From: Tubulanus polymorphus
Lineage: Eukaryota > Animalia > Nemertea
Assembly: GCF_964204645.1 (NCBI RefSeq)
Contig: NC_134031.1
Span: 11,162,088 to 11,226,087, forward strand
DNA length: 64,000 bases
Reading direction: 5' to 3'
Shown here: positions 1 to 40,865 of the stretch, piece by piece
How the letters are laid out: every line of letters starts with the position of its first letter
How positions within the stretch are numbered: the stretch's first letter is position 1
The notes under the pieces: generated by a model
What the model saw: the letters and a program-made list of their open reading frames with translations, nothing else
Told to the model about the DNA's origin: nothing
Database searches by the model: none
Translations under genes and position numbers: made by a program

Positions 1-615
1 TCAAAGCTATTGATGTATAATTTTTATTATAATGTTTTACAACCTCATTTTGGGGAAAAACACATAGAAATTCTATACTTTGATACTGACAGTTATATAT
101 TAAAGATAAAAACTGATAACATAACAGATGATTTAAAAACATTAAAACATCATTTTGATTTCAGTAACTATCCTAAAAATCATGAATTGTTTACCAATGA
201 TAATAAAAAAGTTCCCGGTAAATTCAAAGATGAATTAGGAGGTGAAGAAATGATTGAATTCATTGGTATTAGATCTAAAATGTATAGTTATAAAACTTAA
301 ACTCATGAATCAAAGAAATTGAAAGGAATTACCAAAAGCGTTGTTGAAAAGAATATTCATTTCAAAGATTACATCAATTGTATATTTAATGAAGAAGTTA
401 GAAAACATAAGATGAAATGTTTAAGATCTGAAGATCATGAAATGTATATTGAAGAGATAGAGAAGATAAGTCTAAACCCATTTGATGATAAAAGATATAT
501 TTTAGATGATGGAATCCACACAGTTGCATATGGTTGCAATTTAGATGAATATATAAAATTCAAAAGAGAAGAAACAAAATAAAATGAGATTATGAAAAGG
601 ATTCTAGCGTGTTAA
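1..615 (+). pseudogene. Protein-primed family B DNA polymerase, C-terminal part, with in-frame stops
   Basis: YFDTDS, PGKFKDE, KMYSY, KGI and DDKR motifs; stops at 298-300 and 580-582 are absent from the copy C homologue (51465-53138). Confidence 0.93.
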
Positions 616-643
616 TCAATTTCAATAAAAATTTGTATAATAA

Positions 644-985
644 ATGGAGAGTAAACAAGTACACAGTGAATTCTTAGATAGAATTAAAGATACTTCAAGC
701 GTCAAATCTGTAGATTATAAATTTAAAAAACTAACTGAGTTAACAATTCACAAGAAATATTTAATTACTAACATTGAAACAATTACTAATAAATATGGAG
801 ATAAATTAGTAATTCATTTAGAATATGAAGGATTAAAAGGAAATAAATATAAATTCAGAACTTATTTACCAGATAGATTTCATAGATTATCAAGTGAAGA
901 TCTAGAAGAATTATGTTCTGGAGATTTCTATTTCGTATACAAAGGTAAGAATGAAAAAGGTCACCATGAAATAGATTTCGAATAA
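644..985 (+). CDS. Conserved Polinton accessory protein (possible small beta-rich/OB-like fold)
   Basis: 113 aa ORF; intact homologue at 53168-53521; fold is a guess. Confidence 0.6.
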   Translation: MESKQVHSEFLDRIKDTSSVKSVDYKFKKLTELTIHKKYLITNIETITNKYGDKLVIHLEYEGLKGNKYKFRTYLPDRFHRLSSEDLEELCSGDFYFVYKGKNEKGHHEIDFE

Positions 986-1002
986 GAAAATATGTAAAAT
1001 AA

Positions 1003-1758
1003 ATGGTAGAATTAAAAGAATACAGAATATTTGTAGATTCTAGAAGGCTTACAAATTATAAATCTCATAATTTACTAGTACAATTAGATAGAGAATTTAA
1101 GAATTGTGTTGATTTAAAATTAGTAAATATAAGTTTATGTAATTCTTTTTATAATATATCGGATAAAACTTTTGAACATAGAGGGTTTATGATTTATATG
1201 AGAAATAAAGATAAATGGTTTCATATATTTTTAAAACCAGGATTATATAATTTAGAATCATTAGCGCAGGAAATTAATAGAAGAGCTCGGTTGAAAATCG
1301 GGGGCACTTCTGTATTTGAAATTAGATTTAATAAAATTGATAGTACTAATAAAATAAGAATAAAGATATCTAATGAACAACATAAATTTATGGTAAACAA
1401 ACCACTGGCTAAAATGTTAGGAATTAAACCGCTTACAGTTACTGGAAACGCAGAAGGTAGCTCAAATATAATACCTTTTACACACTTTTATATTTATTGC
1501 AATTTAATCGAGCCTACAAAAACTTTCGAAGCAACTAAAGAAACAATTTGTAATTCAAGTATACTAAATATTTTACCGCTAAAAAATGTTAAACAATTTG
1601 GAACTCAAATAAATTATAATTTAACAGAATGTGATTTTAAACCATGCATTCATAAATTTAGTAATTTTAAATTAGAAATAAGAAATCATAATGGATACTT
1701 AATTGATTTAAATAACTTTCCTGTGATATATGAATTAGTTATAAGATGTAGAGAGTAA
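1003..1758 (+). CDS. Putative minor capsid (penton-like single jelly-roll) protein
   Basis: IFVDSR N-terminus, PGLYN motif and C-terminal FKLEIRNHNGYLIDLN pattern typical of Polinton minor capsid proteins; homologue at 53539-54297. Confidence 0.7.
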   Translation: MVELKEYRIFVDSRRLTNYKSHNLLVQLDREFKNCVDLKLVNISLCNSFYNISDKTFEHRGFMIYMRNKDKWFHIFLKPGLYNLESLAQEINRRARLKIGGTSVFEIRFNKIDSTNKIRIKISNEQHKFMVNKPLAKMLGIKPLTVTGNAEGSSNIIPFTHFYIYCNLIEPTKTFEATKETICNSSILNILPLKNVKQFGTQINYNLTECDFKPCIHKFSNFKLEIRNHNGYLIDLNNFPVIYELVIRCRE

Positions 1759-1774
1759 TTTTTTCACTATATAA

Positions 1775-2122
1775 ATGAATATAACTGTCGGACCGAGTAT
1801 ATGTTTTGGATTTGATTTTAAACGTGAGAAAGAAATGAAATTTAACGTTAATGATGTAATTACACATATTAAAAATATTGCATTTTCTAATGAAACAACA
1901 TTTGAGTATGAAACAACAATTGATAAAGAAACTTTTAATGTAGAAAAGATTACTGAGTCTTTAAGATTTTACGAATTAGATGAAGATTTTATCATATATG
2001 ATATTAAAAACATATTATCCAAAATATATGATAATCATAAAACTAGTAATAAAATAAATGTTGAATTAATCATCACTAAGATAACTAAATATTTTGAAGA
2101 TAGTAATTTTTTTGATAAATAA
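1775..2122 (+). CDS. Polinton hypothetical protein
   Basis: 115 aa ORF; diverged, frameshifted homologue at 54314-54651. Confidence 0.55.
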   Translation: MNITVGPSICFGFDFKREKEMKFNVNDVITHIKNIAFSNETTFEYETTIDKETFNVEKITESLRFYELDEDFIIYDIKNILSKIYDNHKTSNKINVELIITKITKYFEDSNFFDK

Positions 2123-2344
2123 ATGAGTGATAATAAGTGGATAATAACTGGATTATATAATGGAGCATTACTATCAGTTGGAAGTGTTGGTTATTCAATG
2201 GTATTAAAAAAAGTATTCAAAATGGGAAGTGTTAATGTTGATAGATTTGATATAAATGATATTTTAAAGTTAACATTAGCAGTTACTTTATCTAATTTAA
2301 CAATTGATTATTTGGAAAAACAAAAATATATTCCTCCCATATAA
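2123..2344 (+). CDS. Small putative membrane protein
   Basis: 73 aa, two hydrophobic stretches; differs from 54652-54873 by one residue. Confidence 0.7.
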   Translation: MSDNKWIITGLYNGALLSVGSVGYSMVLKKVFKMGSVNVDRFDINDILKLTLAVTLSNLTIDYLEKQKYIPPI

Positions 2345-2368
2345 ATACATAATTTTTTTGCTAAATAA

Positions 2369-2791
2369 ATGGCTTCTGCAATTATAACTATTATAGGATC
2401 GGCAATTGTTAACGCTTTAGCATTTACTGGTGGTGGTTATTTATTTAAACATATTGATAAAAATAGTTCATTAGGAGAACAAAGAAGACATAACTTAGCG
2501 TTAGAGAAATACAATAAAGCTGCAGAAGAATATAGAGAAAAGAGGCAAAACTATATGGATTATATTAACAAAGAATTATATGATCAGAAGATTTCACATA
2601 GAGATTTTCAATCAGTTGATGATGCAATGAGTTTATATAACGCAGTAACCAATAAAGAAAAATTACATCTATAACAACCTAAATTATCAGATTATTATAC
2701 CCCAAGTAAAGAACAACAGAAATATGAAATAATTTGGATTTTAGGTGGAACTGTTATTGTTATATTTGTTGCTTATAAATTTACTAATTAG
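2369..2791 (+). pseudogene. Protein with hydrophobic N- and C-termini and central coiled coil; premature stop
   Basis: Stop at 2672-2674; intact 140 aa homologue at 54898-55320. Confidence 0.8.
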
Positions 2792-2810
2792 TAATTTTTA
2801 TTCTAAATAA

Positions 2811-3245
2811 ATGGAAGATAAAGTTGATAGTATTGATATTATTCCTCATGATATAAATAAAACTAAATTAAAAACATATTTAGAAAAACAGATATTAGAA
2901 TTTGAAAGTGACTTAAAGATAAAAAAGAAAAAATATCTAAAAAGTAAAATTATATATTATTTGATTATAAGTGGTTCGGTTACAATTAGTTCTGTAATAA
3001 CATTTCTAGCAATATTCAGTCCATTAACACCTTTAGCTATATCAATTGGTGTGTTAGGATTAAGTTCAAGTGTTTTAACTGGTATAAGTTCAAAATTAAA
3101 TATAAAAAGTAATAAAGAAAAAATAAAATCTAATATAAAAGAAATTAATAAATTAAAGAATACACTAGATTATATAATAAGTTTAAATGGTCATATAACA
3201 GTTGAAGAACAAGATAAATTATTAAAAGAATTAATAAATTATTAA
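2811..3245 (+). CDS. Two-transmembrane protein flanked by coiled coils
   Basis: 144 aa with paired hydrophobic helices; disrupted homologue from 55340. Confidence 0.65.
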   Translation: MEDKVDSIDIIPHDINKTKLKTYLEKQILEFESDLKIKKKKYLKSKIIYYLIISGSVTISSVITFLAIFSPLTPLAISIGVLGLSSSVLTGISSKLNIKSNKEKIKSNIKEINKLKNTLDYIISLNGHITVEEQDKLLKELINY

Positions 3246-3261
3246 TTTTTTAGTTATATAA

Positions 3262-4350
3262 ATGGGGTTTCCAAAAGCTTTCCAATATAATAAATCAATT
3301 AAATATAATATTCCAGCAATAGATTTTAATAAAGATATTACATATAGAAATGAAGTTTTAAATTCATTAATTGATTTATATATTTATGTTACTGAAACTA
3401 ATAATTTTAATGCAAAGATGGAAAATATATTTCATGTATATTTAATTAATTTTAAAAAATTGAAAGATGAAAAACAATGGTTAGTAAAATCTAATATGAA
3501 GTATTGGCAGAATCAATTAAATTTTGCTGTTTATTGTGCAACAACAGGTTGTGGAATTAGTTGGAATGATCATTTAAATAACTTAGATAAAAATTTAAAG
3601 TATTCTGATTTAAAATTAATTCACACAATATTTAGATTTCACACATATTTTCAAATCAGAATAATATTAAATGAATTAGAATGTCCTTTACCCGGGTCTA
3701 AATATTTTAAAGAATTAGATAATAATATTAATATATCCAAGTTTTATAAAATATGTAATGAATTTAATATAAATATTAATTCCGATTTCAGAGCGCATGG
3801 TAAATTGCAAGGTGTTGGTGAAGAGTATGAAATAAAAAGAATTGATTATATGCATAGAATTTCAGCTTATCATAATTATAAAATTGATAATAATAATGGT
3901 TGGGTTAATTTCATTTTAGAAAATGGTGAAGGTTTTACAAAATCAGGTATACAAAGAATAAATCAATCTATTAGAATTCATTTAATATGTATTTTAGGCG
4001 CCCAAGTTGAAACAAGATCCCCAATAATTGGAAATGATAACACTTCATTCGATGCGCAGAAACAGTTTAAAGTTTTATTTGAAGATTCCATACATGATGA
4101 TAAAAATAGATCGATTCCAGAAAACATTATAAGATATCAAAATTATTTAGATAAATCTCATGTAAGACTTAATTATTGTATAGGCCCTAATCTATTAATT
4201 ATTTCTAATGATTTAGTATTAAAGATGGGAAACATAATTGGTTATAATAATCTAATTAAAACCGCAACAATAAATAATTCATTTGGGTTAAATGATATAA
4301 ATAAAAAGATTATTACTGCTCCAAAATTAATGGAAGGTGAAATCAACTGA
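3262..4350 (+). CDS. Conserved Polinton hypothetical protein (QLNFAVYCATTGCGIS motif); probably continued by 4337-4546
   Basis: 362 aa ORF; disrupted homologue ~55757-57071 has extra sequence at the 4337-4350 junction, so the split may be a deletion in copy A. Confidence 0.7.
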   Translation: MGFPKAFQYNKSIKYNIPAIDFNKDITYRNEVLNSLIDLYIYVTETNNFNAKMENIFHVYLINFKKLKDEKQWLVKSNMKYWQNQLNFAVYCATTGCGISWNDHLNNLDKNLKYSDLKLIHTIFRFHTYFQIRIILNELECPLPGSKYFKELDNNINISKFYKICNEFNININSDFRAHGKLQGVGEEYEIKRIDYMHRISAYHNYKIDNNNGWVNFILENGEGFTKSGIQRINQSIRIHLICILGAQVETRSPIIGNDNTSFDAQKQFKVLFEDSIHDDKNRSIPENIIRYQNYLDKSHVRLNYCIGPNLLIISNDLVLKMGNIIGYNNLIKTATINNSFGLNDINKKIITAPKLMEGEIN

Positions 4351-4546
4351 AACTAAAACTAAGAATATTAAATTAAATAATGATTCTAAAATAAAAGATT
4401 ACAATACATCAGAAAATAATAGAACCGATATTATTCAACATGATATAATTAAACTAAATGATGATAATAAATCCCATGAAAATACTAAATTAGCTATAAC
4501 TTGTATAGGAATTGTAATCGGAGGAATATTATATTTTAAATTTTAA
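4337..4546 (+). CDS. Short ORF with C-terminal transmembrane helix (likely C-terminus of the preceding gene)
   Basis: LAITCIGIVIGGILYF; homologous sequence at ~56870-57071. Confidence 0.5.
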   Translation: MKSTETKTKNIKLNNDSKIKDYNTSENNRTDIIQHDIIKLNDDNKSHENTKLAITCIGIVIGGILYFKF

Positions 4547-4562
4547 TTTTTTTATTATGTAA

Positions 4563-6047
4563 ATGGCAGAAGGTGTAGAAAATATTCCATTTGATGACAT
4601 GGGAAATAATAATGAAGGATATATTGATGATGATTATAATGATGCAGAAACTAATATTGATAATGATGATGAATCAGCATATAATTCTAATTTAACAAGA
4701 CCTGATACTAATGATTTTGTTAAAAATGCACGTTCAAAGATAAGTACTGAAAATGAAGTACCAGAATTAACAGGAAAAGAATACGAATATAATGAAATTA
4801 TTCATGAAATTAAACCAATTTTAAAAAAATCTGGAATTTTAATCAATGATGAAGGTGCCAACCTTTTAGCGCCAGATTTAAAATATTTTAATGGTGAATA
4901 TTATTATCATTTGGAAGGAGATTATTATATTAAGATCACTTATAAAAATAGATTATTAGCAGAATCAACTTTGATGAGGGTAGAACTATCTTAAATTAAA
5001 AGAATAAGTAATAGTAATGAAATAACTGATGTTACACAAGAAGAAAGAGATGAAAATTTTATAAGATTTAAAAATAATGTTGCTAGGTTATTTAAAACAA
5101 TCAAAAATAATCTAGTAACATATGAAGAGTTTAGAGATCGATTAGATAAATTAGGTAAATCAGAAACAGAAACAACTTCTGAACAGAATATAACTTCCAA
5201 AACTAGTAAACTTAAATCAAACACTGAAGTTCAAACTGAAAAACTTTTACCGAATGGATTACTTGATGCAACAGATCAAGAAATAGAAGCTTTAAGTATG
5301 TTTTCTAAAAAAACAATTAGAGAAATAATAAGTATACGAAATGATGCCGATAAAATTGCTCGCGAAAAACATATTAGATATAATAAAATTAAACCTTTAG
5401 AAAATAAATTATTTGACACCAGAAAAGAATTAGAACAATTAAAATTAGATAGAGAATTTAAAGTTATTGAAGAAATTGAATTTAAAAAAAGAAATGCATA
5501 TTTAGAAAAAGAAATTGATGATTTAGAATATAACATAGAATTTCAGAAAGAAAAAATGAAATTATTATTAAAATCATACGATTATTGTATCAATAGATTA
5601 AAAGTTGTTGTTAAAGAGTTAATACTAAAACCAAATTCTGACATATCACTAAAAGATAAAATAAAATTATTATTTAAGTTAGAAGGAATAACAATTCTTT
5701 CAATTCTAACAGCTGTAACTATGTTATTCACAACAATAGGTTTAGCTCTATCAAATTCACTGAAATCTACTCCTACTCCCAATAAACCAGATAAACCTCC
5801 AGGTAATAATTCTATACAAGATAAAGTTAAGGATGGTTTAAAGAAATTAGCAAAATATTTATGGGAACTATCAACGAAATCTGCTGCAGCTTTACCAGGA
5901 GTTATTGCTTTAATTGTTGGTTTTATATTGAAATCTGCAGGAAACATTATTAACTTTGCTGCTGAACATATTATTTTATTTTTAATTACAGTTGTAAGTG
6001 CTATTATTTTTGGTTTAGTAAATATGATATCAAAAAATATCAAGTAA
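4563..6047 (+). pseudogene. Large acidic/coiled-coil protein with C-terminal hydrophobic helices; one premature stop
   Basis: ORFs 4563-4994 and 5298-6047 share a frame; copy C ORF 57118-57900 reads through the position of the 4992-4994 stop. Confidence 0.75.
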
Positions 6048-6088
6048 ACCATGATAAAAAATTAATTATTTATTTTTTTGTTAAATAA

Positions 6089-7336
6089 ATGAGTGGGAGT
6101 TATATAAGTCCTTCGAAGAATCATAGAATATCTAATGCTATTAAAGCAGAAAGATCACATCATATAATTACTCATAACCCTTCAAATATTAATCCCGATG
6201 AAACTTTATATGTTAGAATCCCTCGATTAACACAAAATACTTTTTATGTTCCAAATAGTATTTATTTATCGGCTGATATAAAAGTAATCGGTAATAATAA
6301 TAATTATGTTGTTGATAATGTTGGAAGATATTTGATTAAAAAGTTAACAATAAAGATTGGTCCAGAAACAGTTTTCTCATTAGATGATTATAATTTATTT
6401 TCACATTATAAAGATTTATGGTTAACTAAAGAAAATAGAAATAATATGATATTTCAAGGAATTCAATCAGAAAACCAAAATAAATTAAGATCAGAAGCTA
6501 ATAGCGCAATATTAACTAATGATGTAGATAAATTGATAAAAAGTATATATGGAAGCAAATATAAAATTCCATTAGACTTTGAATTGATAAATAATAATGC
6601 ACCTTTATATAAATACGCAATTCAAGAAGATATTATATTTGAGATAACATTTGCTCCTGTAAATGAAATTGTATTATCTAGCGTTAATAAAGATATGAGT
6701 TATAAATTATCGAATATATGTTTAGAATATGATACAGTAACTGATGAAAATATTTCAAGTATAATTCAAACTAAATATAATCAAGGGTTTTCATTATTAT
6801 ATGATTATATTGATAAATTTAAAACTGTAACTATTAATGCAAATGATGAAATAATTTATGAGAATATTAACTTTCCTAGAAGATCTATTAAAGGTATATT
6901 AATATTTTTTACCATTGGAACGTATACTAATGGTGCAATAAATGTTGATAATTATTATAATCCTGAAATAACAAAAGTAGAAATAACTATTGAAGGTATA
7001 GCAAATAAAATATTTTGTCAAGGAATGAGAATGATTGATCAATGGCCAGAAATTAGAAAACATTTTATGAATGAAAAAGTAAAATCATTTGAAAATTGTA
7101 ATATTAATCAAATTGATTATTATACCGGTAATAAATATGCATTATGGTTAGATTTTAGAACAACTGAAGATAATTCATTACATGGTTCTGGAAAAAAACT
7201 ACAAAATACAAAAGATGGAATACAATTATTCATGACAAAGAAAAAGGGAATCAAAAATTTTAAAATGCATATTTATATTATATCTGACGCGCAATTAAAT
7301 ATTGTAAATTCACAATTAGAAAGTGTTATGTATTAA
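6089..7336 (+). CDS. Putative major capsid protein (double jelly-roll)
   Basis: 415 aa, beta-rich; THNPS..LYVRIP, YKLSNICLEYD, YALWLDFR and C-terminal HIYIISDAQLNI motifs resemble invertebrate Polinton-like MCPs; size and position fit. Confidence 0.78.
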   Translation: MSGSYISPSKNHRISNAIKAERSHHIITHNPSNINPDETLYVRIPRLTQNTFYVPNSIYLSADIKVIGNNNNYVVDNVGRYLIKKLTIKIGPETVFSLDDYNLFSHYKDLWLTKENRNNMIFQGIQSENQNKLRSEANSAILTNDVDKLIKSIYGSKYKIPLDFELINNNAPLYKYAIQEDIIFEITFAPVNEIVLSSVNKDMSYKLSNICLEYDTVTDENISSIIQTKYNQGFSLLYDYIDKFKTVTINANDEIIYENINFPRRSIKGILIFFTIGTYTNGAINVDNYYNPEITKVEITIEGIANKIFCQGMRMIDQWPEIRKHFMNEKVKSFENCNINQIDYYTGNKYALWLDFRTTEDNSLHGSGKKLQNTKDGIQLFMTKKKGIKNFKMHIYIISDAQLNIVNSQLESVMY

Positions 7337-7407
7337 GATTTTAACTTTAATAAAAAATCTTATATTAAATTGAAGGTGGAATATATGAAATACAATCTCC
7401 AAGTGAA

Positions 7408-8424
7408 ATGATATCAGATATATATTATATATTACCTTATGATGAATACAGTAAGTATTTTGGAGATTACTTTAATCAATTCAAATATAGAATAAGTAAA
7501 ATAGATAAGAATATTGAAACAAAAATAGAAGATAATATTGAACCTAAAATAGAAGATAAGAATGATATTGAATATAAAATAGAAGATGATATTGAATCTA
7601 AAATAGAAGATAATGTTATACCTTCTACATCGAATGATGATAAGATTGAAACAAAAATAGAATATAATATTGAACCTAAAATAGAAAAATCAAATGTTCA
7701 ACCAAAAGATAACATCAGATGTATGTATTGTGAAGAAGATTTTGATAATTATAATGATTATTTATTACACATCAAAAAAGATGAACATATTTTACAATTA
7801 GTAAAAACATATGCCAATATATATAAAGATAAATGCAAAGAGGATCAGAATTATTGTGCCTTCTGTAATGAATGTATAACAAAGGCTAATTGGGCAAAAC
7901 ATTATAAATTAAAAACAAAAGGTGGAAATGATTCAGCCCATGCAATACAAGTATTTAAATCTTGGTGTGAAAAATGTAAAGAATATGTAATATATGATAA
8001 ACAATTGAATCATAAATACTCAATTAAACATATTGGTACAGATAATGTAATAGAAAATCCAACAGTTATAAATCCAAAATTTAATAATAAGAATATATTA
8101 GATTATCGGTGGTATAGAAAAACATTTATAGATTATTTATTGAGTAATGATATAGTTACCATATTGAAAAAGTTAGATAACTTTAAACCAAATGTTACTT
8201 ATGCAATGAACTTATTTGAACTTAAATATGATGATTTTAGAGAATTTTTAAATAAACATCCATCTAAAACTGAAATCGAAAATTATATTCCAAAAATATT
8301 TTCAAGAAAAACATTCAATATATATAAACTCGGGAATCATTTAGGACCTATACCAATGAAAATGCAAAGGAATTTATGGTTAGAATACAATAAGCTTAAA
8401 GAAAAATATGAAAATGAAAATTAA
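7408..8424 (+). CDS. C2H2-type zinc-finger protein with acidic IEPKIED-like repeats
   Basis: Three CxxC...H..H units (CMYC, CAFC, CEKC); low-complexity repeats at ~7500-7690. Confidence 0.65.
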   Translation: MISDIYYILPYDEYSKYFGDYFNQFKYRISKIDKNIETKIEDNIEPKIEDKNDIEYKIEDDIESKIEDNVIPSTSNDDKIETKIEYNIEPKIEKSNVQPKDNIRCMYCEEDFDNYNDYLLHIKKDEHILQLVKTYANIYKDKCKEDQNYCAFCNECITKANWAKHYKLKTKGGNDSAHAIQVFKSWCEKCKEYVIYDKQLNHKYSIKHIGTDNVIENPTVINPKFNNKNILDYRWYRKTFIDYLLSNDIVTILKKLDNFKPNVTYAMNLFELKYDDFREFLNKHPSKTEIENYIPKIFSRKTFNIYKLGNHLGPIPMKMQRNLWLEYNKLKEKYENEN

Positions 8425-8428
8425 AAAG

Positions 8429-8806
8429 ATTATAGAATTCACTGTATATTGATGGATGAATGGATGAGTTGGATGAGTTGGATGAGTTGGATGAGTGGAA
8501 GAGTGGATGAGTGTAATAATATATATATTTTACTTTTTAACACATAAATTGGAAGAATAGTATGAGTATAAATATAATATTTATATTCTTTATCAAATTT
8601 AACACAATATATATATATTATTAAAATAACATTTAAATATAATATAAAATTGATAAAATAACTTCAAATCAAACTCTTACTGTTTTAAAAATAAAAAACA
8701 TATGTAAATTATATATTATTATACTCATCCATTCATCCACTCTTCCAATTCATCCAATTCATCCAATTCATCCACTCATCCATCAGTATACAGTGAATTC
8801 TATAAT
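8429..8806. repeat. Long inverted repeat between convergent gene blocks, with TGGATGA(G/A)(T) tandem units in the arms
   Basis: attatagaattcactgtata...tatacagtgaattctataat; ~105 bp arms around an AT-rich spacer. Confidence 0.9.
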
Positions 8807-8822
8807 ATTTTGAATTAGGATT

Positions 8823-9437
8823 TTATTTTATAAATTTATATTCATAGGGAAATTGTAATCTCATTAATAATTTTGAACCTTTATTATTCTTTAATTTATT
8901 CATATATTCATCATGTAATTCAGGAGGTATAATTTGATTTTCTTCTAATGATTGTTGCATAGATTTTCTATCTTTGTTGTAGAATAAAACTAGAAATCTT
9001 ATATTCTCTCTAAAATCTTTCACAATTGAATTATATTTCTGATTTAAAACCCAAGTTGTTATCCCAAAATGTCTACCAGAGAAAGCTAAATAACATAACT
9101 CACTTTCTCTAATTTTAGAATCATGTAAATTTGCGCAATCATCAATAATAAATAATGTATTAGATCCTTTATAAATATCTAATGCAATTTTTATACAATT
9201 ATCTAAATTTTCTTTTACTGTTTTAGAATTTAATATAATAAACTTTTTATCTTTAAAAACTATATCTCTATTATACGTTTCATTCATTTCATAAGTTGGG
9301 CAGAATAATATTATATTATCAAAATGATTCTTATAAATAGTTTCGAATAAATATAATATGAAGTGTGTTTTACCACAATTTGTAACTCCAGTAACTAACA
9401 TATTATGAGGTTCAAATATAAACAAATCTTTATTCAT
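8823..9437 (-). CDS. A32/FtsK-like DNA packaging ATPase
   Basis: Walker A GVTNCGKT, Walker B LFIIDD, GRH motif. Confidence 0.9.
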   Translation of the reverse strand: MNKDLFIFEPHNMLVTGVTNCGKTHFILYLFETIYKNHFDNIILFCPTYEMNETYNRDIVFKDKKFIILNSKTVKENLDNCIKIALDIYKGSNTLFIIDDCANLHDSKIRESELCYLAFSGRHFGITTWVLNQKYNSIVKDFRENIRFLVLFYNKDRKSMQQSLEENQIIPPELHDEYMNKLKNNKGSKLLMRLQFPYEYKFIK

Positions 9438-10518
9438 TTATTCTTTTAATTTTACTAGATAAAATCCATTCATTAAATTTATCATCATATCCTTTATATT
9501 TCACCAAAGAATACTTTTTTCCTTTAAGAGTTTTTGTTTTCGATACCTTTTCTATTTTGTATTCTATTTCATCTGGATTTGGTACTAATGATAATTCTTG
9601 TTCATAGAAATAACCTAATATTTCTTCATCTTTTAAATCTTCTAATTTATAAACAAATGGTTTAGTTAATATTATCTTTTTAATCTTAAATATTTCTTCA
9701 GTAAAATTAGGGGTATAACCTTTATAAAATGTTTTTCGATATTTAGAAATTCTAACATGTTGTCCTATTTTAAATTTAGGTTCTCCAAAATCATGTGTAA
9801 CAAATGCGCCATATAAATTATTCCAAACTATTTCTGAATTTTCTTCTTTTCTAGCTTGTATAGGTTTCATATTTATAGAACTATGTTTAGAATTATTATA
9901 ACCTTTAACTAAATCATCTAACACATCGATATATTTATATGTTTCATTAGCGGTGAAATATTTCCACATTCTAGTTTTCAATGTTTTATTAAATCTTTCT
10001 ATAACAGATGCTTTTTTATCTGAATGTGTTGAAAAATATTCTACATCGTTATCAGTTAATAGTTTTTTAAAATGTTTGTTATAAACTTCTTTACCTTCAT
10101 CAAATTGTATTTTATCTGGGATAGCTTCTTTAAATATTAATTTGAAAGAATTTGTAACTTCTATTCCAGTTTTATTTTTAATCGGGATACTCCATGCGTA
10201 TCTACTGAATATATCTATAACATTCAGTATCCAGAAATATCCTTTGTTGTATTCTTCTAAGTTCTTCATATCAATTAAATCTGCTTGCCATTGTTGGTCA
10301 ATATATGAAACCATTACTTTTCTTGTTAAATAAGTTTTATCCATCTTTTTATGAATTTGATATGTGGGTTGATTTTGTAACCATGATTTTAATTCACTAT
10401 ATTTTATATTGCTATTATCGGATTTAATTTTATTCCATAATTCCGAAACATTTGAATATGAAACTTCACTTTCTGGGTTGTAATATAACGCTCTTAAATA
10501 TTGTTCTTTTTTCATCAT
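9430..10518 (-). CDS. Retroviral-like (rve) integrase with C-terminal chromodomain
   Basis: WQADLID, IDIFSRYAW, FDEGKE, ERFNKTLK; chromodomain LVKYKGYDDKFNEW. Confidence 0.95.
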   Translation of the reverse strand: MMKKEQYLRALYYNPESEVSYSNVSELWNKIKSDNSNIKYSELKSWLQNQPTYQIHKKMDKTYLTRKVMVSYIDQQWQADLIDMKNLEEYNKGYFWILNVIDIFSRYAWSIPIKNKTGIEVTNSFKLIFKEAIPDKIQFDEGKEVYNKHFKKLLTDNDVEYFSTHSDKKASVIERFNKTLKTRMWKYFTANETYKYIDVLDDLVKGYNNSKHSSINMKPIQARKEENSEIVWNNLYGAFVTHDFGEPKFKIGQHVRISKYRKTFYKGYTPNFTEEIFKIKKIILTKPFVYKLEDLKDEEILGYFYEQELSLVPNPDEIEYKIEKVSKTKTLKGKKYSLVKYKGYDDKFNEWILSSKIKRINE

Positions 10519-10521
10519 ATT

Positions 10522-10917
10522 TTAATCCATTAATAATAATTTAGATTTAGTTTCAATGGTTTTATGATTTGACTTAATTTCTGGTATAATAGGTTTGTTG
10601 TCATTGGAATCATCTTTATCATCAGATTTGAATTTTGATTTATATATTACACCGGATAATATAATAAGTGTTACTAACCCAATTGTAATATATAATTTAT
10701 AATTACTTCCAGCATTAGAAGAATTAGATGGATTATTATTTGAATCAATACCACCGTGTGGGTGCTGTACGGCACCATCAGATAAAGTCTGTGATTCATT
10801 TATATCAGTTAATTTCTTTTTCTTAGCTTTTTTTAATTCTGATGATCTTTTACCTAATTCTCTTGCCCATTTAATTTGTTTCTCGGATCTAGCCTTTTTC
10901 TTAACGCCATCACTCAT
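10522..10917 (-). CDS. Basic N-terminus, single-transmembrane protein
   Basis: 131 aa; homologue at 37002-37412. Confidence 0.7.
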   Translation of the reverse strand: MSDGVKKKARSEKQIKWARELGKRSSELKKAKKKKLTDINESQTLSDGAVQHPHGGIDSNNNPSNSSNAGSNYKLYITIGLVTLIILSGVIYKSKFKSDDKDDSNDNKPIIPEIKSNHKTIETKSKLLLMD

Positions 10918-11512
10918 TTATTTTAGTTAATTTTTGTTCTGATTCATTTTCTGTTTCACTGTTTGGTTGTAGTACATCTGTTTCGTTCTTACCTGATTTA
11001 TATTCCATAGGCTTGATGTTCGAAAATGTTATGACACCAGTAGAAATTAATGTCATAACCGATCCTAATTGAAATGAAGCATATCCGACCCATTTTTGTA
11101 ATTCAGTCATAACTAAGTAGTCATTTTTCAAATCACTATATAATTTATTTTCATCATCAATTGGTATTAACTGGTTACATAACTTAGAATAACATTTGAC
11201 AATACCATCTGAAATAGAATCATTTATTCTAGCTAATCTTGACTCTTCATAAATCTTAAAATATTTTATTACTTTTTCTTTATTCATATTATCTAATTCT
11301 TGAAAAGTTATTGTTTTACCAATAAACTCTTTAGTTTTTCCACTCGCAATCAATAGTTCTAGATGATGCTTACAATATAAATAGTATTCATAATCTATAT
11401 TGTTATTAACTTGAATAGAATTAGAAACAACTGTATCTTTATTATCACTAATACCTAAATCATCTAATGTCTTTTCAATATCAATATTATTCTTACTCGA
11501 TTTCTTTGACAT
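10910..11512 (-). CDS. Polinton hypothetical protein
   Basis: 200 aa; disrupted homologue at 36401-37009. Confidence 0.7.
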   Translation of the reverse strand: MSKKSSKNNIDIEKTLDDLGISDNKDTVVSNSIQVNNNIDYEYYLYCKHHLELLIASGKTKEFIGKTITFQELDNMNKEKVIKYFKIYEESRLARINDSISDGIVKCYSKLCNQLIPIDDENKLYSDLKNDYLVMTELQKWVGYASFQLGSVMTLISTGVITFSNIKPMEYKSGKNETDVLQPNSETENESEQKLTKINE

Positions 11513-11759
11513 TTATATTAGAGAAATTTAATAAGAATAGTATTATAAGTATTCTTCAAATGATACTAGATAGTTAAAGTTAAAGAATTCTAGTATTGAC
11601 TACTGATACTAGCTATTTGAATTTAAAGATTTTCTATTTGAATCTATTCAAAATATAAAGTATTCTCTTTTGAAAAGAAAGTATTAAAAATATAATAGAA
11701 ATAATAGATAGTTGAAGGTATGTAATTTTTATTATATTTTATTTAAAATCTATTATTCT

Positions 11760-12557
11760 TTAACCACTCATTAAAGACTCAACGTATTGTTCATTATGTG
11801 TTGAATTCCATAATTCAATAATTTTTTTTGCTTTATCCAGTTGATTCAAATATAACTGTAAATCTAGTTTATTAAATTTTATTTTATTTTCTTTCTTTTC
11901 AAGAGGTCTTAGATTCTTCCAATTCCATATTAACTTCTGATTGTATTCATCATTCATGTCAAATTTAGATATTGGTAACATATGATCAATATGAAAATAA
12001 TTGCCATAATTATTTATATTCATTTTATCATCGAATTGAAATATTATCCATGATTTGAAGAATTCATCCGAACAATCTAGTAAATTAGATAATGTGTATG
12101 AGTGACTGTCTTTACTGAATAATTGTGTTAATCTAGTCCTTAAGCATTGTTTCAATCTAAAATTAAGATCTGTTTGATATTTTTCATTTTGATAATTGTT
12201 AATATTCTCTCTATTATTTTCCCTCCATTCTCTCATATATTCTGGGTGATTTTCTCTCCATTCTCTCATATATTCTGGGTGATTTTCTCTCCATTGTTTA
12301 TTATAAACTTTCCATTTTTCTGGATTATTTTCTCTCCATTGTTTATCTTTTTCTTTATATTTTTCTGGATTATTTGCTCGATATTGTTTATTATATAGTT
12401 TATAACAAGTTTTGCAATAACAACTTTTACCATCTTTAGTTTTTTTATGATTATGAAATTCTGTTAATGATTTATTCAATTCACACTTATTACATTTCTT
12501 ATAGCATATATTTATTACACCATTATTGTTTATATTTATAGTTTGTGTACTTTCCAT
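11760..12557 (-). CDS. HNH-type endonuclease with N-terminal C4 zinc finger and WREN(N/H)PE repeats
   Basis: CNKC..CYCKTC; HIDHMLP...NLRPL...EN motif; homologue at 35397-36071. Confidence 0.78.
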   Translation of the reverse strand: MESTQTININNNGVINICYKKCNKCELNKSLTEFHNHKKTKDGKSCYCKTCYKLYNKQYRANNPEKYKEKDKQWRENNPEKWKVYNKQWRENHPEYMREWRENHPEYMREWRENNRENINNYQNEKYQTDLNFRLKQCLRTRLTQLFSKDSHSYTLSNLLDCSDEFFKSWIIFQFDDKMNINNYGNYFHIDHMLPISKFDMNDEYNQKLIWNWKNLRPLEKKENKIKFNKLDLQLYLNQLDKAKKIIELWNSTHNEQYVESLMSG

Positions 12558-12689
12558 TTAAAATATATATTTTTACTAAATTGGTTAATATTTTATAATC
12601 CTCTTCCATTTCTTCGACCAACATCATCCTTTTTCATTCCTCGCTGCTTTTGATAAGTCAGTTTCAATTCCTTGATATCTAAATAATAC

Positions 12690-13040
12690 CACTGGGCAAA
12701 ACCGCTCTTATAGGAGCGCTTTTGCTTAATGCGCATGCGTTAATCATAATTATATATTCATTCTGTAAATTCTGTAAAATAGAAACGACCGACATAAAAT
12801 ATCAAAACGTGTTCGCACTAAGCAAAACCGCTCTTATTGGAGCGTTTTTACTTAATACGCATGCGCTAATCATAATTATATATTCATTCTGTAAAATAGA
12901 AACAACTGAACATAGAAAATTCAAACGCATGTGCACTAGGCAAAACCGCTCTTATAGGAGCGTTTTTGATCAATGCGCATGCGCTAATCATAATTATATA
13001 TTCATTCTGTAAAATAGAAACGACCGAACATAAAAATTCA
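12690..13040. repeat. Three ~120 bp tandem units, each with a hairpin GCAAAACCGCTC-TTAT(A/T)G-GAGCG(C/T)TTTT
   Basis: Units start near 12690, 12816 and 12934. Confidence 0.9.
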
Positions 13041-13127
13041 CCAATCAGATTTACACAATACATTATACAAGTATGTTCGATCGTTGTATTGACAAAATTT
13101 ATAGTTTCAACTAATACATTATTTTAT

Positions 13128-13865
13128 TTATAATTCCAACCAGAACTTTTCAATTTCTGGATCATTGTCAAACATTTTTTCAATATCGTTTAAGTATTTT
13201 ACTATATCAGAAAATGACAAACTTAAAAATTGGAATCTTTTATATGTAATTAATCTCCCTACACTTCTTGATTTTCTTTCATACCCAGCACTAATACCTA
13301 TATATTTTTTAACCCAAGAAGTCCAAGAAATCCCCGCAGTTTGTTTATTAAACATTAAAAATCCCCTATTTAAACAATCCCCGAAAATGATATAATCCCA
13401 TAAATGCTTTGCTTTTTTAAATAACAAGGTTCTATAATTTTTTTTCAATAAAACAGTTATTTCATTAAATGATGTTACACCTTCTATTTCTTTAAAACTT
13501 ACATCTTTTTCATTTGATAATTTTGATTTTAAAAACTTATTTAACTCATTTCCGCTCATTTTCTTTTCAGTTTTTGTTCCTTTTAGTCTTAACAATATTT
13601 CTACATTGGTTGTTGGTCTTTTCGGTAATGATGTTACGCTTGATTGCTGGTTTTCTATTATTTTTTCTAAAATTAATGTCATTTCTTGATGGTAATATAA
13701 ATGTTTTTTAACTTCTTCTAACGTTTCATCTTCTATATCGAAAGATTCTTTTACTTCAGTACCCATTTCGGTTGGTTCATCTTCCATTTCGGTTGGTTCA
13801 TCTTCCATTTCGGTTGTCCTCTGAGAATCAAGAGTACTTCTTGATACACACGACATTTTATTCAA
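13128..13865 (-). CDS. Hypothetical protein; C-terminal half loosely resembles DUF3102-like helical domains
   Basis: 245 aa; TEMEDEP repeats; G..L......W..W....GIS....R pattern; domain call is tentative. Confidence 0.55.
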   Translation of the reverse strand: MNKMSCVSRSTLDSQRTTEMEDEPTEMEDEPTEMGTEVKESFDIEDETLEEVKKHLYYHQEMTLILEKIIENQQSSVTSLPKRPTTNVEILLRLKGTKTEKKMSGNELNKFLKSKLSNEKDVSFKEIEGVTSFNEITVLLKKNYRTLLFKKAKHLWDYIIFGDCLNRGFLMFNKQTAGISWTSWVKKYIGISAGYERKSRSVGRLITYKRFQFLSLSFSDIVKYLNDIEKMFDNDPEIEKFWLEL

Positions 13866-14334
13866 CTAAAAGATATCAGCGGTAGAACAGGAACCGCGAT
13901 ATTATATGATATAAATATTTTCAAGTCTATCGTTTCTAATTATTATAACTTATTATAGTTCAAGTTATTATCTATCTAACGTAAAATAGAATTAACTGTA
14001 TGAAGTTGTAGTTGTCAAAAGCACTTAAAGGTTTCATATTTAATAGCCCCAATAACTACAAAAAACAGTACTTACATTTAGATTTATAATTGTAAACTAT
14101 AAACTCTTAATTTCGTTTATCCTGAGCACAATGTTACAGCGTATGTCCATTTCCGGGGCGATTTCTAGAATGACACGTCGTTGATTATGCCACGTCATCT
14201 AGTTCCGGTTTTAGAATTTTCTCTACACGTTTGTAATATTATGTGTCATAATGTCTCGTCGTCATAGTAACAACTGTAACGGCTGTGAATTTATAGATTT
14301 ATTCCATAGCTCTGTACATTCAATGTATATAGGT

Positions 14335-14571
14335 TCAAATAGAATCATGTTCTAGTATAAACATCGGATCCTCAACATATTGTTCATTATTTGGATCATT
14401 ATTCCATAATTCAATAAATTTCTTTCCCTTTGTTAACTGTTCTGAATATAACTGTAAATATTCTAGTTTCAATTTATTCTCTAAATGTGTTTTAGTTTTA
14501 TTGTGTCTTGCTTTTTGGGATTTATCTATATTGATATTACATGTTGGGCAGTAGTACTTATTTGCTTCCAT
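14335..14571 (-). CDS. Small C2H2 zinc-finger protein, C-terminus altered by the insertion
   Basis: CPTC...H...H; uninterrupted version at 35066-35317. Confidence 0.65.
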   Translation of the reverse strand: MEANKYYCPTCNINIDKSQKARHNKTKTHLENKLKLEYLQLYSEQLTKGKKFIELWNNDPNNEQYVEDPMFILEHDSI

Positions 14572-14651
14572 TTTAATACTAAATTTTTTATTAAAATTGA
14601 TTTTAGAAGTTCAATGATTTAAATGTTATTCATATATATGAATATTTTAAG

Positions 14652-14918
14652 AGTAATAGGGATAATGGGCTTTCAAGCTAAAGGTTGAACGGGCGGGTGA
14701 GTAAAAATGAAAAAACATAAAAATAATTACAATTTCTACTTGAATTAGGAGTGAAACTCATAAAATGAAAAATAAATTCGAGCGTGTGAGAATTTATTTT
14801 TCATTTTTATGAGTTTTGCGAGTAATTCAAGTAGAAATTGTAATTATTTTTATGTTTTTCATTTTTTACGAGCTCGACCGTTCGACCTTTGGCTTGAAAG
14901 CCCATTATCCCTATTACT
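14652..14918. repeat. Right-terminal 267 bp imperfect hairpin of Polinton copy A
   Basis: AGTAATAGGG...CCCTATTACT; loop near 14780-14789. Confidence 0.95.
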
Positions 14919-15224: not shown

Positions 15225-16350
15225 CTTAGGTGTTTTACTGCTTTAGTATCGAATGATAACACTTTTATTCGGAATTATGGTTCTCGATATTTTAGAAAAA
15301 TACAGTTCAAGCGTTTTATGGTTTACTAAATTCTTTATTTTCACTAAACGAGGTTCTAACAATTTTCAATTTTGAAGAAATGAGGTTTGAACTTTTTTAA
15401 TAGGAAAATACTATACGGTTTTGACAAAATAACATTAGTTAAAAATACGGTTTGACTATTTTTCGATTTTACATATTCGAGGTTTGAATATTTTTCAATT
15501 TGAACTAACAACAACGAAAATCTTGTAAAAAATAAATATGATTAGTGTTCCCACGTATAATAATCCATGTTGTTTTTTATACAAAAAAAATCAAATGCTC
15601 AAGCATGCATCAATAGATCTTCGGTCATCTCATCTTTTTTCTTTTTTGTGCTTGGAAATGAAATACAACTTCATTGAATGTGAATGTGAAATTTAAAAAC
15701 TGACTCTTGCGTGATTTTTTCAATCTTTATAAATTTACCAAGGTCTAGCTGTAAAATGCATGAAATGTAGAAAATCTCGATATAATATTGCAATGTAAAA
15801 GTATGGGGAATTTGTGAAAATATGTTTAAAAAACATAAATATTTAAGAAAAGTTTTTAAAAATTGGGAATTTTGTAACAAAGAAAAAGCGATGCGAAAAA
15901 AGATAAAGTATATACATATACATATTTTTGTCTGTTATTTCTCTATATTTGGAAAGACTAAAGTGATTTAGTTACATGTGTGTGTAGTTTCGTTGTTTAA
16001 AATCTCTTGTGTATACAAAACTTTGGAACCATATTTTTCAAAAACCTAAAAATTGTTATACCGCGTTTATTGAAAATTTAAAATCATCATCCTACTAAAA
16101 CGCCATATACTGAAAAATGCTAAAACCGGAAATCCCATTTTCTATTTTTTCATCAAACCTGTTAGTATTTTCCTATTAAAAAAGTCCAAACCATATTTTT
16201 TAAAAACTGAAAAATTGTTAAACCTCGTTAACTGGAAATAAAGAATTCTGCATTATAATCAATGTAAGTTATCGGGAAATGCTTACAACTCGAAATCTAA
16301 TAAACTGCGGTTTTACATATTCGACACTAAAACACTAAAATCACTTAAAC
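15225..16350. mobile_element. Diverged foldback/MITE-like element
   Basis: 15329-15412 is an approximate reverse complement of 16162-16247; 15243-15254 pairs with 16318-16329. Confidence 0.55.
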
Positions 16351-22157: not shown

Positions 22158-22899
22158 GAATTTCTCTAACTAAATGAACATTATTTTTCCAATAACTCCG
22201 ATCAAGAGTGACTCTCCCGTTTATTAGGAAACACACGCAACTAGTGGAATAGGTTTGATTTACACACATGTTGCAGGTATAAATTGTTTTTCACTATAGA
22301 ATTTGTGATCCATAAAAGCCAAAATCAACATCAGCCGGAAACCCAGACCAAATCAATTCATAATTTATTGATTGAATCTACACTACAATATATGTATTTA
22401 TTCAAATATTTCATTAAAAAGATTAACTTCTTGAATCTATTCCAAATCTTAATACGTTCTTATCTATAAATTCACTCAATGTATCGACTCAGCAGGTGCT
22501 TAAGATTAGTTCTTAATAGGACAGATCCATTTTAAGCATGGTGATAATACAGTATCATGATGTTTGAATGCCAAAATAAATGCTTGGTCAAATAAATTCA
22601 TATTTGTTGATTGTACGTCCGCGTATGTTCGGTTTCAAAGCTGAATCATATCTGACGTTTACACATCGGTTGCATATTAGGTTCGAATCTGTCAATGCAT
22701 TTTATTCTATGTATCGGTATTTCAATTCACTACAATTCCCATCGTTCTGAATGGCTTTGCAGAAAACCCGTAATCGCTGCTTGGCAGCAATATTCACTAT
22801 AATTGTGTTGTGTCGAAATGTTTGTCACAGAACTCCTCTATTACGGCATCTTATGTATTTGTATTCACAGCGATGCGCTAATGTATATTTTGTCCTACG

Positions 22900-23370
22900 A
22901 TTAGTCGTTAAGGATCATCATCAGACAGTCGTCACGCTTTACTATATAAAATAACAAGGGATGAAACGCAGTTCAATTCGTGCCAGCCAGAAAGTTGGGA
23001 CAGTCACGTGACAGTCGCGCTTCTTATTTGACTGAATGCAAACCCGAAGCATCTAACATGGAAACTATGATACGAAAAATATTTGAGAATAACTTACATT
23101 CAAATGCATTTTTTTTCTAGGAATTATATATTTGATCATAATTTATTCTTTATAAGTTATTAATTTCATATGAATCATAATCTGACAATTGGTATCGGTC
23201 TGTGAATATGTTAACTTTTCATGTTAAAGTTTTAAATGTGATGACATCATCAGAATGTCACATGACTGTCCCAACTTTCTGGCTGGCACAACTTTGAAGG
23301 CGTTTCATCCCTTGTTATTTTATATAGTAGCGTGACGACCGTCTGATAATGATTCTTAACGACCAATTGT
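22900..23370. mobile_element. MITE/foldback element with ~115 bp inverted repeats
   Basis: ~22900-23013 is the reverse complement of ~23256-23370. Confidence 0.8.
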
Positions 23371-34718: not shown

Positions 34719-34985
34719 AGTAATAGGGGTAATAGGCTTTCAGATCAAAGGTCGAACGGTCGAGCTCGTAAAAAATGAAAAAACATGAAAATAATAACAA
34801 TTTCTACTTGAATTACTCGCAAAACTCATAAAAATGAAAAATAAATTCTCACACGCTCGAATTTATTTTTCATTTTATGAGTTTCACTCCTAATTCAAGT
34901 AGAAATTGTTATTATTTTTATGTTTTTCATTTTTACTCACCCACCCGTTCAACCTTTAACCCGAAAGCCTATTACCCCTATTACT
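34719..34985. repeat. Right-terminal 267 bp imperfect hairpin of copy B
   Basis: AGTAATAGGGG...CCCCTATTACT; homologous to 14652-14918. Confidence 0.95.
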
Positions 34986-35065
34986 CTTAAAATATTCACA
35001 TATATGAATAACATTTAAATCATTGAACTTCTAAAATCAATTTTAATAAAAAATATAGTATTAAA

Positions 35066-35317
35066 ATGGAAGCAAATAAGTACTACTGCCCAACATGTAA
35101 TATCGATATAGATAAATCCCAAAAAGCAAGACACAATAAAACTAGAACACATTTAGAGAATAAATTGAAACTAGAATATTTACAGTTATATTCAGAACAG
35201 TTAACAAAGGGAAAGAAATTTATTGAATTATGGAATAATGATCCAAATAATGAACAATACGTTGAGGAATTTGATATCAAGGAATCGAAAGAACTTATCA
35301 AAAGCAGCGAGGAATGA
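35066..35317 (+). CDS. Small C2H2 zinc-finger protein
   Basis: 83 aa; homologue of 14335-14571. Confidence 0.65.
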   Translation: MEANKYYCPTCNIDIDKSQKARHNKTRTHLENKLKLEYLQLYSEQLTKGKKFIELWNNDPNNEQYVEEFDIKESKELIKSSEE

Positions 35318-37418: not shown

Positions 37419-38436
37419 ATGAAAAAAGAACAATATTTAAGAGCGTTATATTACAACCCAGAAAGTGAAGTATCATTTTCTAACGTTTCAGAATTATGGA
37501 ATAAAAATAAATCTGATAATAGCAATGGTGCCGTACGGCACCCACACGGTGATATAAAATATAGTGAATTAAAATCATGGTTACAAAATCAACCCACATA
37601 TCAAATTCATAAAAAGATGGATAAAAAATATTTAACAAGAAAAGTAATGGTTTCATATATTAACCAACAATGGCAAGCTGATTTAATTGACATGAAGAAC
37701 TTAGAAGAATATAACAAAGGATATTTTTGGATACTAAATGTTATAGATATATTCAGTAGATACGCATGGAGTATCCCGATTAAAAATAAAACTGGTATAG
37801 AAGTTACAAATTCTTTTAAATCTATATTTAAAGAAGCTATCCCAGATAAAATACAATTTGATGAAGGTAAGGAATTTTATAACAAACATTTTAAAAAACT
37901 ATTAACTGATAACGATGTAGAATATTTTTCAACACATTCAGATAAAAAAGCATCTGTTATAGAAAGATTTAATAAAACATTGAAAACTAGAATGTGGAAA
38001 TATTTTACTGCTAATGAAACATATAAATATATCGATGTGTTAGATGATTTAGTTAAAGGTTATAATAATTCTAAACATAATTCTATAAATATGAAACCTA
38101 TACAAGCTAGAAAAGAAGAAAATTCAGAAATAGTTTGGAATAATTTATATGGAGCATTTGTTACACATGATTTTGGAGAACCTAAATTTAAAATAGGACA
38201 ACATGTTAGAATTTCTAAATATCGAAAAACATTTTATAAAGGTTATACCCCTAATTTTACAGAAGAAATATTTAAAATTAAAAAGATAATATTAACTAAA
38301 CCATTTGTTTATAAATTGTTTGATTTAAAAGATGAAGAAATATTAGGTTATTTCTATGAACAAGAATTATCACTTGTACCAAATCCAGATGAAATAGAAT
38401 ACAAAATAGAAAAGGTATTGAAAACAAAAACTCTAA
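37419..38436 (+). pseudogene. rve integrase, 3'-truncated
   Basis: Homologue of 9430-10518; homology stops at ~38436. Confidence 0.9.
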
Positions 38437-38588
38437 AGCAGGACCCGCGAAAAAATGACCATTTCGTTTCGTAGTTTAGCATTTCGTATAGTATTTCGTT
38501 TCGTACTTTAGCATTTCTTAATTTCGTTTTGCATTTCGTAATTTCGTTGCATATTTCTTAATTTCGTAGTCGTACTTTAGAAGTACCC
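38437..38588. repeat. TTTCGTA-repeat interspersed element at the copy B breakpoint
   Basis: Related to 21988-22157. Confidence 0.65.
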
Positions 38589-39802: not shown

Positions 39803-40103
39803 CAGTGGCGGATCCAGAGGCATAGTATGACTACCGCAATTCGGCAACCGAGTGCCGAAGGCACGAGATGTGCAATACGAGTACGGGGGGTTTGGGGGTC
39901 CTCCCCCAGATAATTTTGAATAATTTAAAGGGCTGAGATGACATTTCCTGGGTTTTGGAAGAGAAAAATCCTGTTTTAATGTGGGTACTTTTTCCAAGGA
40001 ATCAGCTAAGTCAAGTCCATCCATGAAATAAATAAAATGTTGATAGAGGAACAATGTTGACTACCGCATTAGCGGCAAGTGCGGTAGGCTAAATCCGCCA
40101 CTG
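39803..40103. mobile_element. MITE with CAGTGGCGGAT terminal inverted repeats
   Basis: CAGTGGCGGAT...ATCCGCCACTG flanked by CAAAT on both sides. Confidence 0.8.
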
Positions 40104-40563: not shown

Positions 40564-40865
40564 CAGTGGCGGATCCAGAGGCATAGTATGACTACCGCAT
40601 TTCGGCAACCGAGTGCCGAAGGCACGAGATGTGCAATTCGAGTACGGGGGGTTTGGGGGTCCTCCCCCAGATAATTTTGAATAATTTAAAGGGCTGAGAT
40701 GACATTTCCTGGGTTTTGGAAGAGAAAAATCCTGTTTTACTGTGGGTACTTTTTTCCAAGGAATCAGCTAAGTCAAGTCCATCCATGAAATAAATAAAAT
40801 GTTGATAGAGGAACAATGTTGACTACCGCATTAGCGGCAAGTGCGGTAGGCTAAATCCGCCACTG
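40564..40865. mobile_element. Duplicate of the MITE at 39803-40103
   Basis: Same termini and flanks within the second tandem unit. Confidence 0.8.

Follow-up and report, generated by a model that had tools for sequence, protein, structure and literature searches.

The window analysed here, a 64,000-nucleotide stretch of the Tubulanus polymorphus genome, bears the signature of animal DNA (an intermediate-filament gene together with LTR and LINE retrotransposons) and contains three partial Polintons, copies A, B and C, none of which (0/3) has both of its ends inside the window (Table 1). The main blocks of A and B are 93-96% alike and A and C are 83.5% alike; copy C is assigned on this comparison to a different subfamily than A and B. 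The length of the element is estimated at ∼19 kb. Copy C is inserted within a LINE ORF2 and carries a deletion just inside its hairpin, from 49661 inward; the LINE ORF2 that it splits lies at 47765-49227 and 58167-58610 (-), so that its endonuclease and reverse transcriptase parts are on opposite sides of C. A Gypsy-like LTR retrotransposon whose 150-bp LTRs are identical and an adjoining 850-bp near-perfect tandem duplication are found at 42402-46959 and 39518-41129, and an array of ∼120-bp tandem repeats (12690-13040) lies inside the right arm of A, in a stretch that is missing from B.

Table 1. Polinton copies, genes and palindromes in the window (for the hairpin of copy A, + is the 3'-terminal, G-T-favoured strand)
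Feature	Position	Strand	Remarks
Copy A	1-14918		left part off-window
Copy B	34719 to ∼38437	inverted relative to A	truncated in integrase
Copy C	49228 to ∼58162	+	right part lost
Copy A right-end hairpin, 267 bp	14652-14918	+	outer arm ends at tip 14918
Copy B right-end hairpin, 267 bp	34719-34985	-	tip at 34719
Copy C left-end hairpin, 437 bp	49228-49664	-	tip at 49228; inner arm cut at 49660
Inner part of probable TIR (A): promoter-like spacer and ∼40 zinc-finger codons	14458-14651	-	TIR inferred
Same spacer and zinc-finger codons (B)	34986-35179	+
Copy A pPolB, C-terminal part	1-582	+	remainder off-window
Copy C pPolB, broken	49661-53138	+	counterpart of homolog aa 1-191 missing; more breaks
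RVE integrase with chromodomain (A)	9430-10518	-	PF00665 E 4e-8; PF00385 weak
RVE integrase (B)	37419-38474	+	PF00665 E 1e-9; truncated at B's end, ∼38437
Packaging ATPase, A32-like (A)	8823-9437	-	PF04665 E 2e-12
Probable double jelly-roll major capsid protein (A)	6089-7336	+	Atlas lead
Internal palindrome, 414 bp (A)	8411-8824	.	between two convergent gene blocks

The pPolB of these elements has many homologs: 5838 of the 7990 sequences scored match it at E ≤0.001, and the best are 81-84% identical. The closest, P0001-P0003, are proteins of 1319-1365 aa (81-84% identity), in which the TP GSG serine loop and the vOTU cysteine align with those of copy C at the motif positions given in a published domain description, in the part of the preprint available (bioRxiv 10.1101/2024.03.18.585575). 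Thus copy C, although broken, retains both the GSG serine motif and the vOTU cysteine motif, and it also carries an endonuclease VII domain (PF02945, E 4e-6). We considered loss of the terminal protein in the A/B/C family and rejected it, as C is merely deleted and the 1319-1365-aa homologs retain TP. PF03175 found no match in the pPolB pieces of the window, in P0001 or P0002, or in the distant relative L054 described below. Since an OTU-PolB divergent from pfam03175 defines the Beta-PolB class of adintoviruses (PMC8502044, in the text available to us), the A/B/C pPolB is placed in the Beta class. From what that source gives, Beta-PolB adintoviruses and the elements studied here are alike in an OTU pPolB without PF03175, an RVE integrase, an A32 ATPase, a probable DJR capsid, a length of ∼19 kb (our estimate) and tips of the AGT type. 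The candidate capsid protein has no Pfam match; its Atlas features lie at 0.97-0.98 to viral clusters, some of which have Capsid_N/DJR members. Pfam scans found no Ulp1-like maturation protease among the ORFs scanned, which include part of the small ones, and no HUH Rep nickase in the same set.

The terminal palindromes are well defined. Arm alignments contain 114 Watson-Crick pairs in A, 111 in B and 164 in C, and the right ends of A and B are indeed imperfect palindromes of 267 bp, as a sequence-only reading of this DNA had described them. That reading was also right in recognising a palindrome at the left end of C, but its extent is 437 bp and not ∼433 bp; C has in addition a perfect inner stem of 33 bp (49387-49419/49444-49476). 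The tips are of the AGT type, and the outermost pairs of A and B are perfect to the last base, for 27 and 23 pairs, respectively. A 23-nt end motif occurs six times in the window (0.00 expected). In A and B each arm carries it without mismatch, so the proposal that each end carries the motif twice is borne out for these two copies; it does not extend to C, whose inner copy has three mismatches as a result of the deletion running inward from 49661. All three copies share mismatches at sites 28, 35 and 47 of their inner arms. The stretch shared by the two types of end had been put at only ∼50 bp; it is actually 77 bp at 88%, and weakly ∼105 bp. The internal bulges, which had been called conserved, are alike in A and B, but most of them lie in the centre (78-190), which is identical in the two copies, and therefore speak for shared descent only. 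In A, what we take to be a GC-box-like word occupies the position in the inner arm that corresponds to a CpG-rich block of the outer arm. Just inside this arm is a 16-bp perfect TATA-like palindrome (14628-14643), a candidate promoter of the first gene.

The idea that the elements have two different ends sharing a short TIR is probably wrong, because that comparison crosses subfamilies (A versus C). P0001-P0003 match C only from residue 192 (177 in P0003), in an alignment that starts at 49661, exactly at the cut inner arm, and thus C has lost its spacer and the N-terminus of its pPolB. The first 40 residues of the homologs match instead, at 70-76% (by tblastn, 76% for P0001 aa 8-41 and 70% for P0002 aa 1-40), the start of an ORF immediately inside the right end of A, at 14571-14458, and of B, at 35066-35179, and a zinc finger is recognised there (zf-U1, E 7e-4). 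The right end of A and B thus carries what would be expected of a left end, in agreement with a TIR of at least 460 bp that would extend over hairpin, spacer and first codons. Read depth is 1267 in the interior of the 437-type hairpin and 556 on average in pPolB (maximum 687), and the resulting ratio of 1.8-2.3 fits two hairpins per element, although it could also arise from deleted copies and from the 85% cut-off. The mismatch sites 28, 35 and 47 that the inner arms have in common also speak for long TIRs. The palindromes are likely the outer part of ordinary long TIRs, with one hairpin per end, and we infer that the same hairpin stands at both ends of one element. Most probably each subfamily has its own hairpin at both ends, and a true asymmetry between left and right is doubtful. 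The further suggestion that no panhandle is possible is probably wrong too, since long TIRs with hairpins fit the data. The right end also contains a short chimeric ORF (14335-14571, minus strand, and 35066-35299, plus strand) that fuses the pPolB-like zinc finger with a duplicate of the C terminus of another ORF, the one of 265 aa found at 11760-12557.

For the 437-type end, the only end that the read data concern, we examined the flanks in reads aligned to 48900-50400, using four runs labelled as the same species (at most three samples, from two studies); one of these was a raw-read run, of which ∼12% of the reads were used. Outside 49228, 2086 raw reads continue into varied DNA (agreement 0.33, among the rows listed), while behind 49660, 871 raw reads continue into one common sequence (agreement 0.89, again among the rows listed), which by eye matches the spacer inside the right ends of A and B. 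With varied DNA outside and fixed DNA inside, the outer arm is therefore the mobile boundary, and the inner arm adjoins element DNA. Standalone MITEs would have varied host DNA on both sides, but here the inner flank is fixed. In addition, the palindromes adjoin Polinton genes in all three copies of the window and in L054. Thus the palindromes are, as had been supposed, the true ends of the elements and mostly not standalone MITEs. Flip/flop isomers of the whole hairpin, however, find no support in the reads of the 437-type end or in copies A, B and C; the arm polarity is the same in 3/3 copies, and only the central loop of the 437-type end appears inverted between copies.

The two arms change together. 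Between the hairpins of A and B there are 14 substitutions, of which 10 are partnered across the arms as five pairs (positions 11/257, 16/252, 25/243, 27/241 and 77/191), a number that random placement reaches in 3 of 200,000 trials; the covariation reported from the sequence alone is thus confirmed. However, template switching both generates stems and preserves them, with changes that can pass for compensatory ones (PMC8794818), and it homogenises arms and inverts the spacer between them (PMC8604942; both sources in the excerpts available). Around the centre of C, we found at least 12 opposite-strand joints among those listed, covered by at least 1266 X5 reads, with coordinate sums of 98855-98862 (422 reads), 98891 (836 reads) and 98903 (8 reads); for comparison, the register of the inner stem of C is 98863. 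In the other study, such joints are seen in single contigs only, and the joints may include fold-back artefacts of the library. In most copies the loop would be inverted relative to C and the arm ∼28 nt shorter, with the perfect stem of C the longer one, a pattern that suggests the signature of template switching. The arms would then be kept in step by template switching while a few polarised mismatches stay. Because template switching can produce such changes, the covariation of the arms is explicable by it and is by itself no evidence of selection; mismatches that persist beside co-changing neighbours are better evidence.

These mismatches have a strand bias. On the 3'-terminal strand, the ratio of G-T to A-C within the outer 50 pairs is 4:0 in A, 7:0 in B and 6:0 in C, and the distinct sites with a transition mismatch in the outer stem divide 10:0 in favour of G-T (two-sided P = 0.002, post hoc). 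All 10 therefore agree with the observation, made from the sequence alone, that the outer-stem mismatches of the three hairpins are G-T on this strand. Over the whole hairpins the ratios are 7:1 (A), 9:2 (B) and 10:1 (C), and three control palindromes, MITE-like inverted repeats of the host at 15329-16247, 22897-23370 and 63463-63966, are balanced (7:7, 9:10 and 22:15). Base composition was rejected as the cause, as the composition of the element predicts a G-T fraction of ∼0.5 (0.48-0.50 in the element body); the composition of the hairpins themselves predicts 0.56-0.61, which weakens the 10:0 bias but does not remove it. CpG decay as the sole cause was likewise rejected, since CpG is found only at sites 35, 39 and 43 of the 10 and decay is strand-symmetric, and deamination of the displaced strand was rejected by reasoning, since it would mark the 5'-terminal strand, opposite to the bias seen. 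Strand-specific folding upheld the claim that the 3'-terminal strand folds better (for copy A, -108.4 versus -98.3 kcal/mol with DNA parameters), and the gaps between strands are 9-11 kcal/mol with DNA parameters and 24-32 kcal/mol with RNA parameters. A strand bias in the mismatches is thus present at the ends but is not unique to them: the stem of the internal hairpin of A has 6:1 G-T on the plus strand and folds ∼9 kcal/mol better on one strand, and we therefore rejected the difference in folding energy as evidence specific to the ends. This internal palindrome, which is built partly of 9-bp tandem units, is possibly a terminator or a signal at which forks meet.

We compared 42 distinct contigs with distantly related pPolBs (23 + 15 + 4 new), most of which have no visible end. 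An AGT-starting palindrome before pPolB was found in one of the 42, L054, a contig binned into an archaeal MAG, whose pPolB is 33% identical and carries an endonuclease VII domain. Its palindrome is 129 bp long, with the pPolB ATG ∼150 bp inside and non-coding-looking DNA outside; G-T outnumbers A-C by 3:0 on its 3'-terminal strand, which folds at -42.2 versus -33.3 kcal/mol. The assembly behind L054 does not contain a second end of this element. No such hairpin is present in the TIR-bearing distant relatives L025/L060 (812-bp TIR) and L041 (∼490 bp), and the hairpin-end design is thus old but not universal. Two further short, AT-rich hits were dismissed, one inside pPolB in L049 and the other at the pattern locus L085. 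Scans of viral contigs with single proteins yielded no close relatives, and the loci found by scanning for the end motif (10 in metagenomes, and 10 and 52 in viral contigs) include none with an end hairpin or extended similarity and were treated as chance. Another distant pPolB element has a 184-bp palindrome (L032:4657-4840) that separates its last gene from pPolB; the terminal-type motif is in the opposite orientation there, an arrangement resembling a head-to-tail or circle junction. Polinton-type pPolB contigs also occur in 15 bacterial or archaeal bins of GTDB (L044-L058), where they are probably misbinned eukaryotic viral DNA.

The elements are, then, ordinary Beta Polintons with a real, conserved and strand-polarised end structure, and the hairpin ends likely help to restart copying of the element DNA from the tip. 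To our knowledge, neither the exit of a Polinton from the chromosome nor the start of its replication has ever been shown, and the two-end panhandle is a model. In descriptions available in part, the displaced strand needs a duplex origin, modelled as a panhandle of the two ends (PMC4196379, PMC4046053), and a panhandle of paired TIRs serves as origin in pPolB elements (PMC4046053). Our preferred reading, to which we give a probability of roughly 40%, is that the hairpin lets the released 3' end rebuild a duplex origin locally. Protein-primed strand-displacement replication would release a single strand, the 3' end of which would fold onto the inner arm and its inner copy of the terminal motif; this fold-back would rebuild the duplex origin on the spot, without having to find the far end ∼19 kb away. 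This would explain why it is the 3'-terminal strand that pairs better. Since the serine loop of TP and the cysteine of vOTU are both retained, protein priming is available. In vivo, the hairpin would fold and act as an origin. Against this reading, long TIRs would still permit a panhandle and make the hairpin unnecessary; two distant relatives have TIRs without a hairpin, which is found in only one of 42 contigs, most of them lacking a visible end; and the internal hairpin has a similar strand preference (6:1). Moreover, a G-U bias is more classic as an RNA signature, and RNA parameters widen the gap between the strands. An outward transcript from a TIR promoter would be a hairpin RNA of 270-440 nt (a decoy, a source of small RNA or a terminator), for which it also speaks that the favoured strand is the one copied by such a transcript and that the internal hairpin between convergent genes is biased alike; however, a functional RNA leaves unexplained the exact terminal motif in the arm, to the last base, and we consider it the least probable of the readings.

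Self-priming of the parvovirus kind, in which pPolB extends the paired 3'-OH and the hairpin-ended duplex is nicked, possibly by the endonuclease VII domain, would make direct use of the perfect outer 27 and 23 pairs of A and B, which leave the 3'-OH pointing into the genome, and the same model has been proposed for protist virophages and PLVs in the available part of a preprint (bioRxiv 10.64898/2026.07.28.741278). However, the TP and vOTU motifs are retained, HUH Rep was not found in the Pfam scans of ORFs, A, B and C have the same polarity with inner-type arms followed by fixed DNA (0.89), whole-hairpin flip/flop is unsupported, and in that preprint the Halocafeteria palindromes go preferentially with non-pPolB elements. 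With the TP motif retained and flip/flop unsupported, local rebuilding of the origin fits better than self-priming, which we regard as unlikely. Equally unlikely is that the hairpin is a functionless by-product, one fold-back duplication of the end with arms kept alike by template switching. Template switching does make and maintain stems with apparent compensatory change (PMC8794818, PMC8604942, as excerpted), and the at least 12 opposite-strand joints fit a loop inverted relative to C in most copies and a longer stem in C; but the same design recurs at 33% pPolB identity (L054), copying should erase mismatches while polarised ones persist across subfamilies 83.5% alike, and the 10:0 strand bias is left unexplained. 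Slightly more credible, if still improbable, is that the hairpin or cruciform is a structural signal, for excision from the chromosome by integrase or the endonuclease VII domain, for integration or for packaging, with the fixed mismatches as recognition features. Retroviral-type integrases join the 3' end strand, which is the strand favoured here, and T4 endonuclease VII cuts branched DNA; a domain of this kind is present in the pPolB of both C and L054. All three copies keep the mismatches at sites 28, 35 and 47 while neighbouring sites co-change, and there is a parallel in vaccinia, where hairpin mismatches are needed for virion maturation (PMC8956199, in the portion available). On the other hand, endonuclease VII domains are common across pPolBs and are read as homing or intein insertions, and a cruciform needs both strands folded, so that it would favour neither.

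Among known systems, adenovirus replicates by protein-primed strand displacement, in which the displaced strand needs a duplex origin and the two ITRs pair; the Polintons resemble it in protein-primed strand displacement, but each Polinton end could pair with itself. Parvoviruses, including AAV, use rolling hairpin replication; their terminal palindrome is imperfect, and its paired 3'-OH faces the genome. The Polinton ends share this palindrome and paired 3'-OH, but they differ in that TP is retained, HUH Rep was not found in the ORFs scanned and whole-hairpin flip/flop is unsupported. Standard Polintons are described with TIRs of 100-1000 bp and an end-to-end racket or panhandle, and the part of that description available makes no mention of a terminal motif duplicated internally by fold-back, as in the present elements (PMC4196379). 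Casposons, from a source likewise available in part, are also self-synthesising and have internal palindromes in some TIRs, but they are prokaryotic, use a Cas1 integrase and are modelled to replicate through a two-end panhandle (PMC4046053). The nearest parallel in design is found in virophages (subtypes 1, 2, 5 and 6) and a PLV (subtype 4) of Halocafeteria seosinensis, which have terminal palindromes within TIRs beside the insertion site, with hairpin priming proposed (bioRxiv 10.64898/2026.07.28.741278). These differ in their protist host, in a palindrome of 52 nt in the illustrated subtype and in a preference for non-pPolB elements, and neither covariation nor strand bias is described in the text available; the Polinton hairpins measure 129-437 bp, are imperfect and polarised, and belong to pPolB elements that bear TP. 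Thus the judgement that this end architecture is undescribed stands for animal pPolB elements, for which the literature searched (the original Polinton/Maverick papers and Repbase being outside its scope) contained no description of hairpin ends, but not more generally, as palindromes and hairpin priming are known from protist virophages and PLVs.

For curators, these ends carry two warnings: the terminal motif is repeated internally, so that element boundaries can be misplaced, and covariation of the arms can stem from template switching. For the study of replication, the fold-back tip is a small, defined DNA substrate on which the predictions of the panhandle, local-origin and self-priming models diverge. 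It is also conceivable, if slightly less so than self-priming on its own, that the telomeres of one lineage of animal Beta Polintons are hybrid: each self-folded 3' end could prime pPolB from its own 3'-OH as well as by TP priming, and the endonuclease VII domain built into the polymerase would resolve the hairpin. If this were true, these elements would link the adenovirus and parvovirus types of replication as a living bridge, and giant fold-back derivatives would arise from them.
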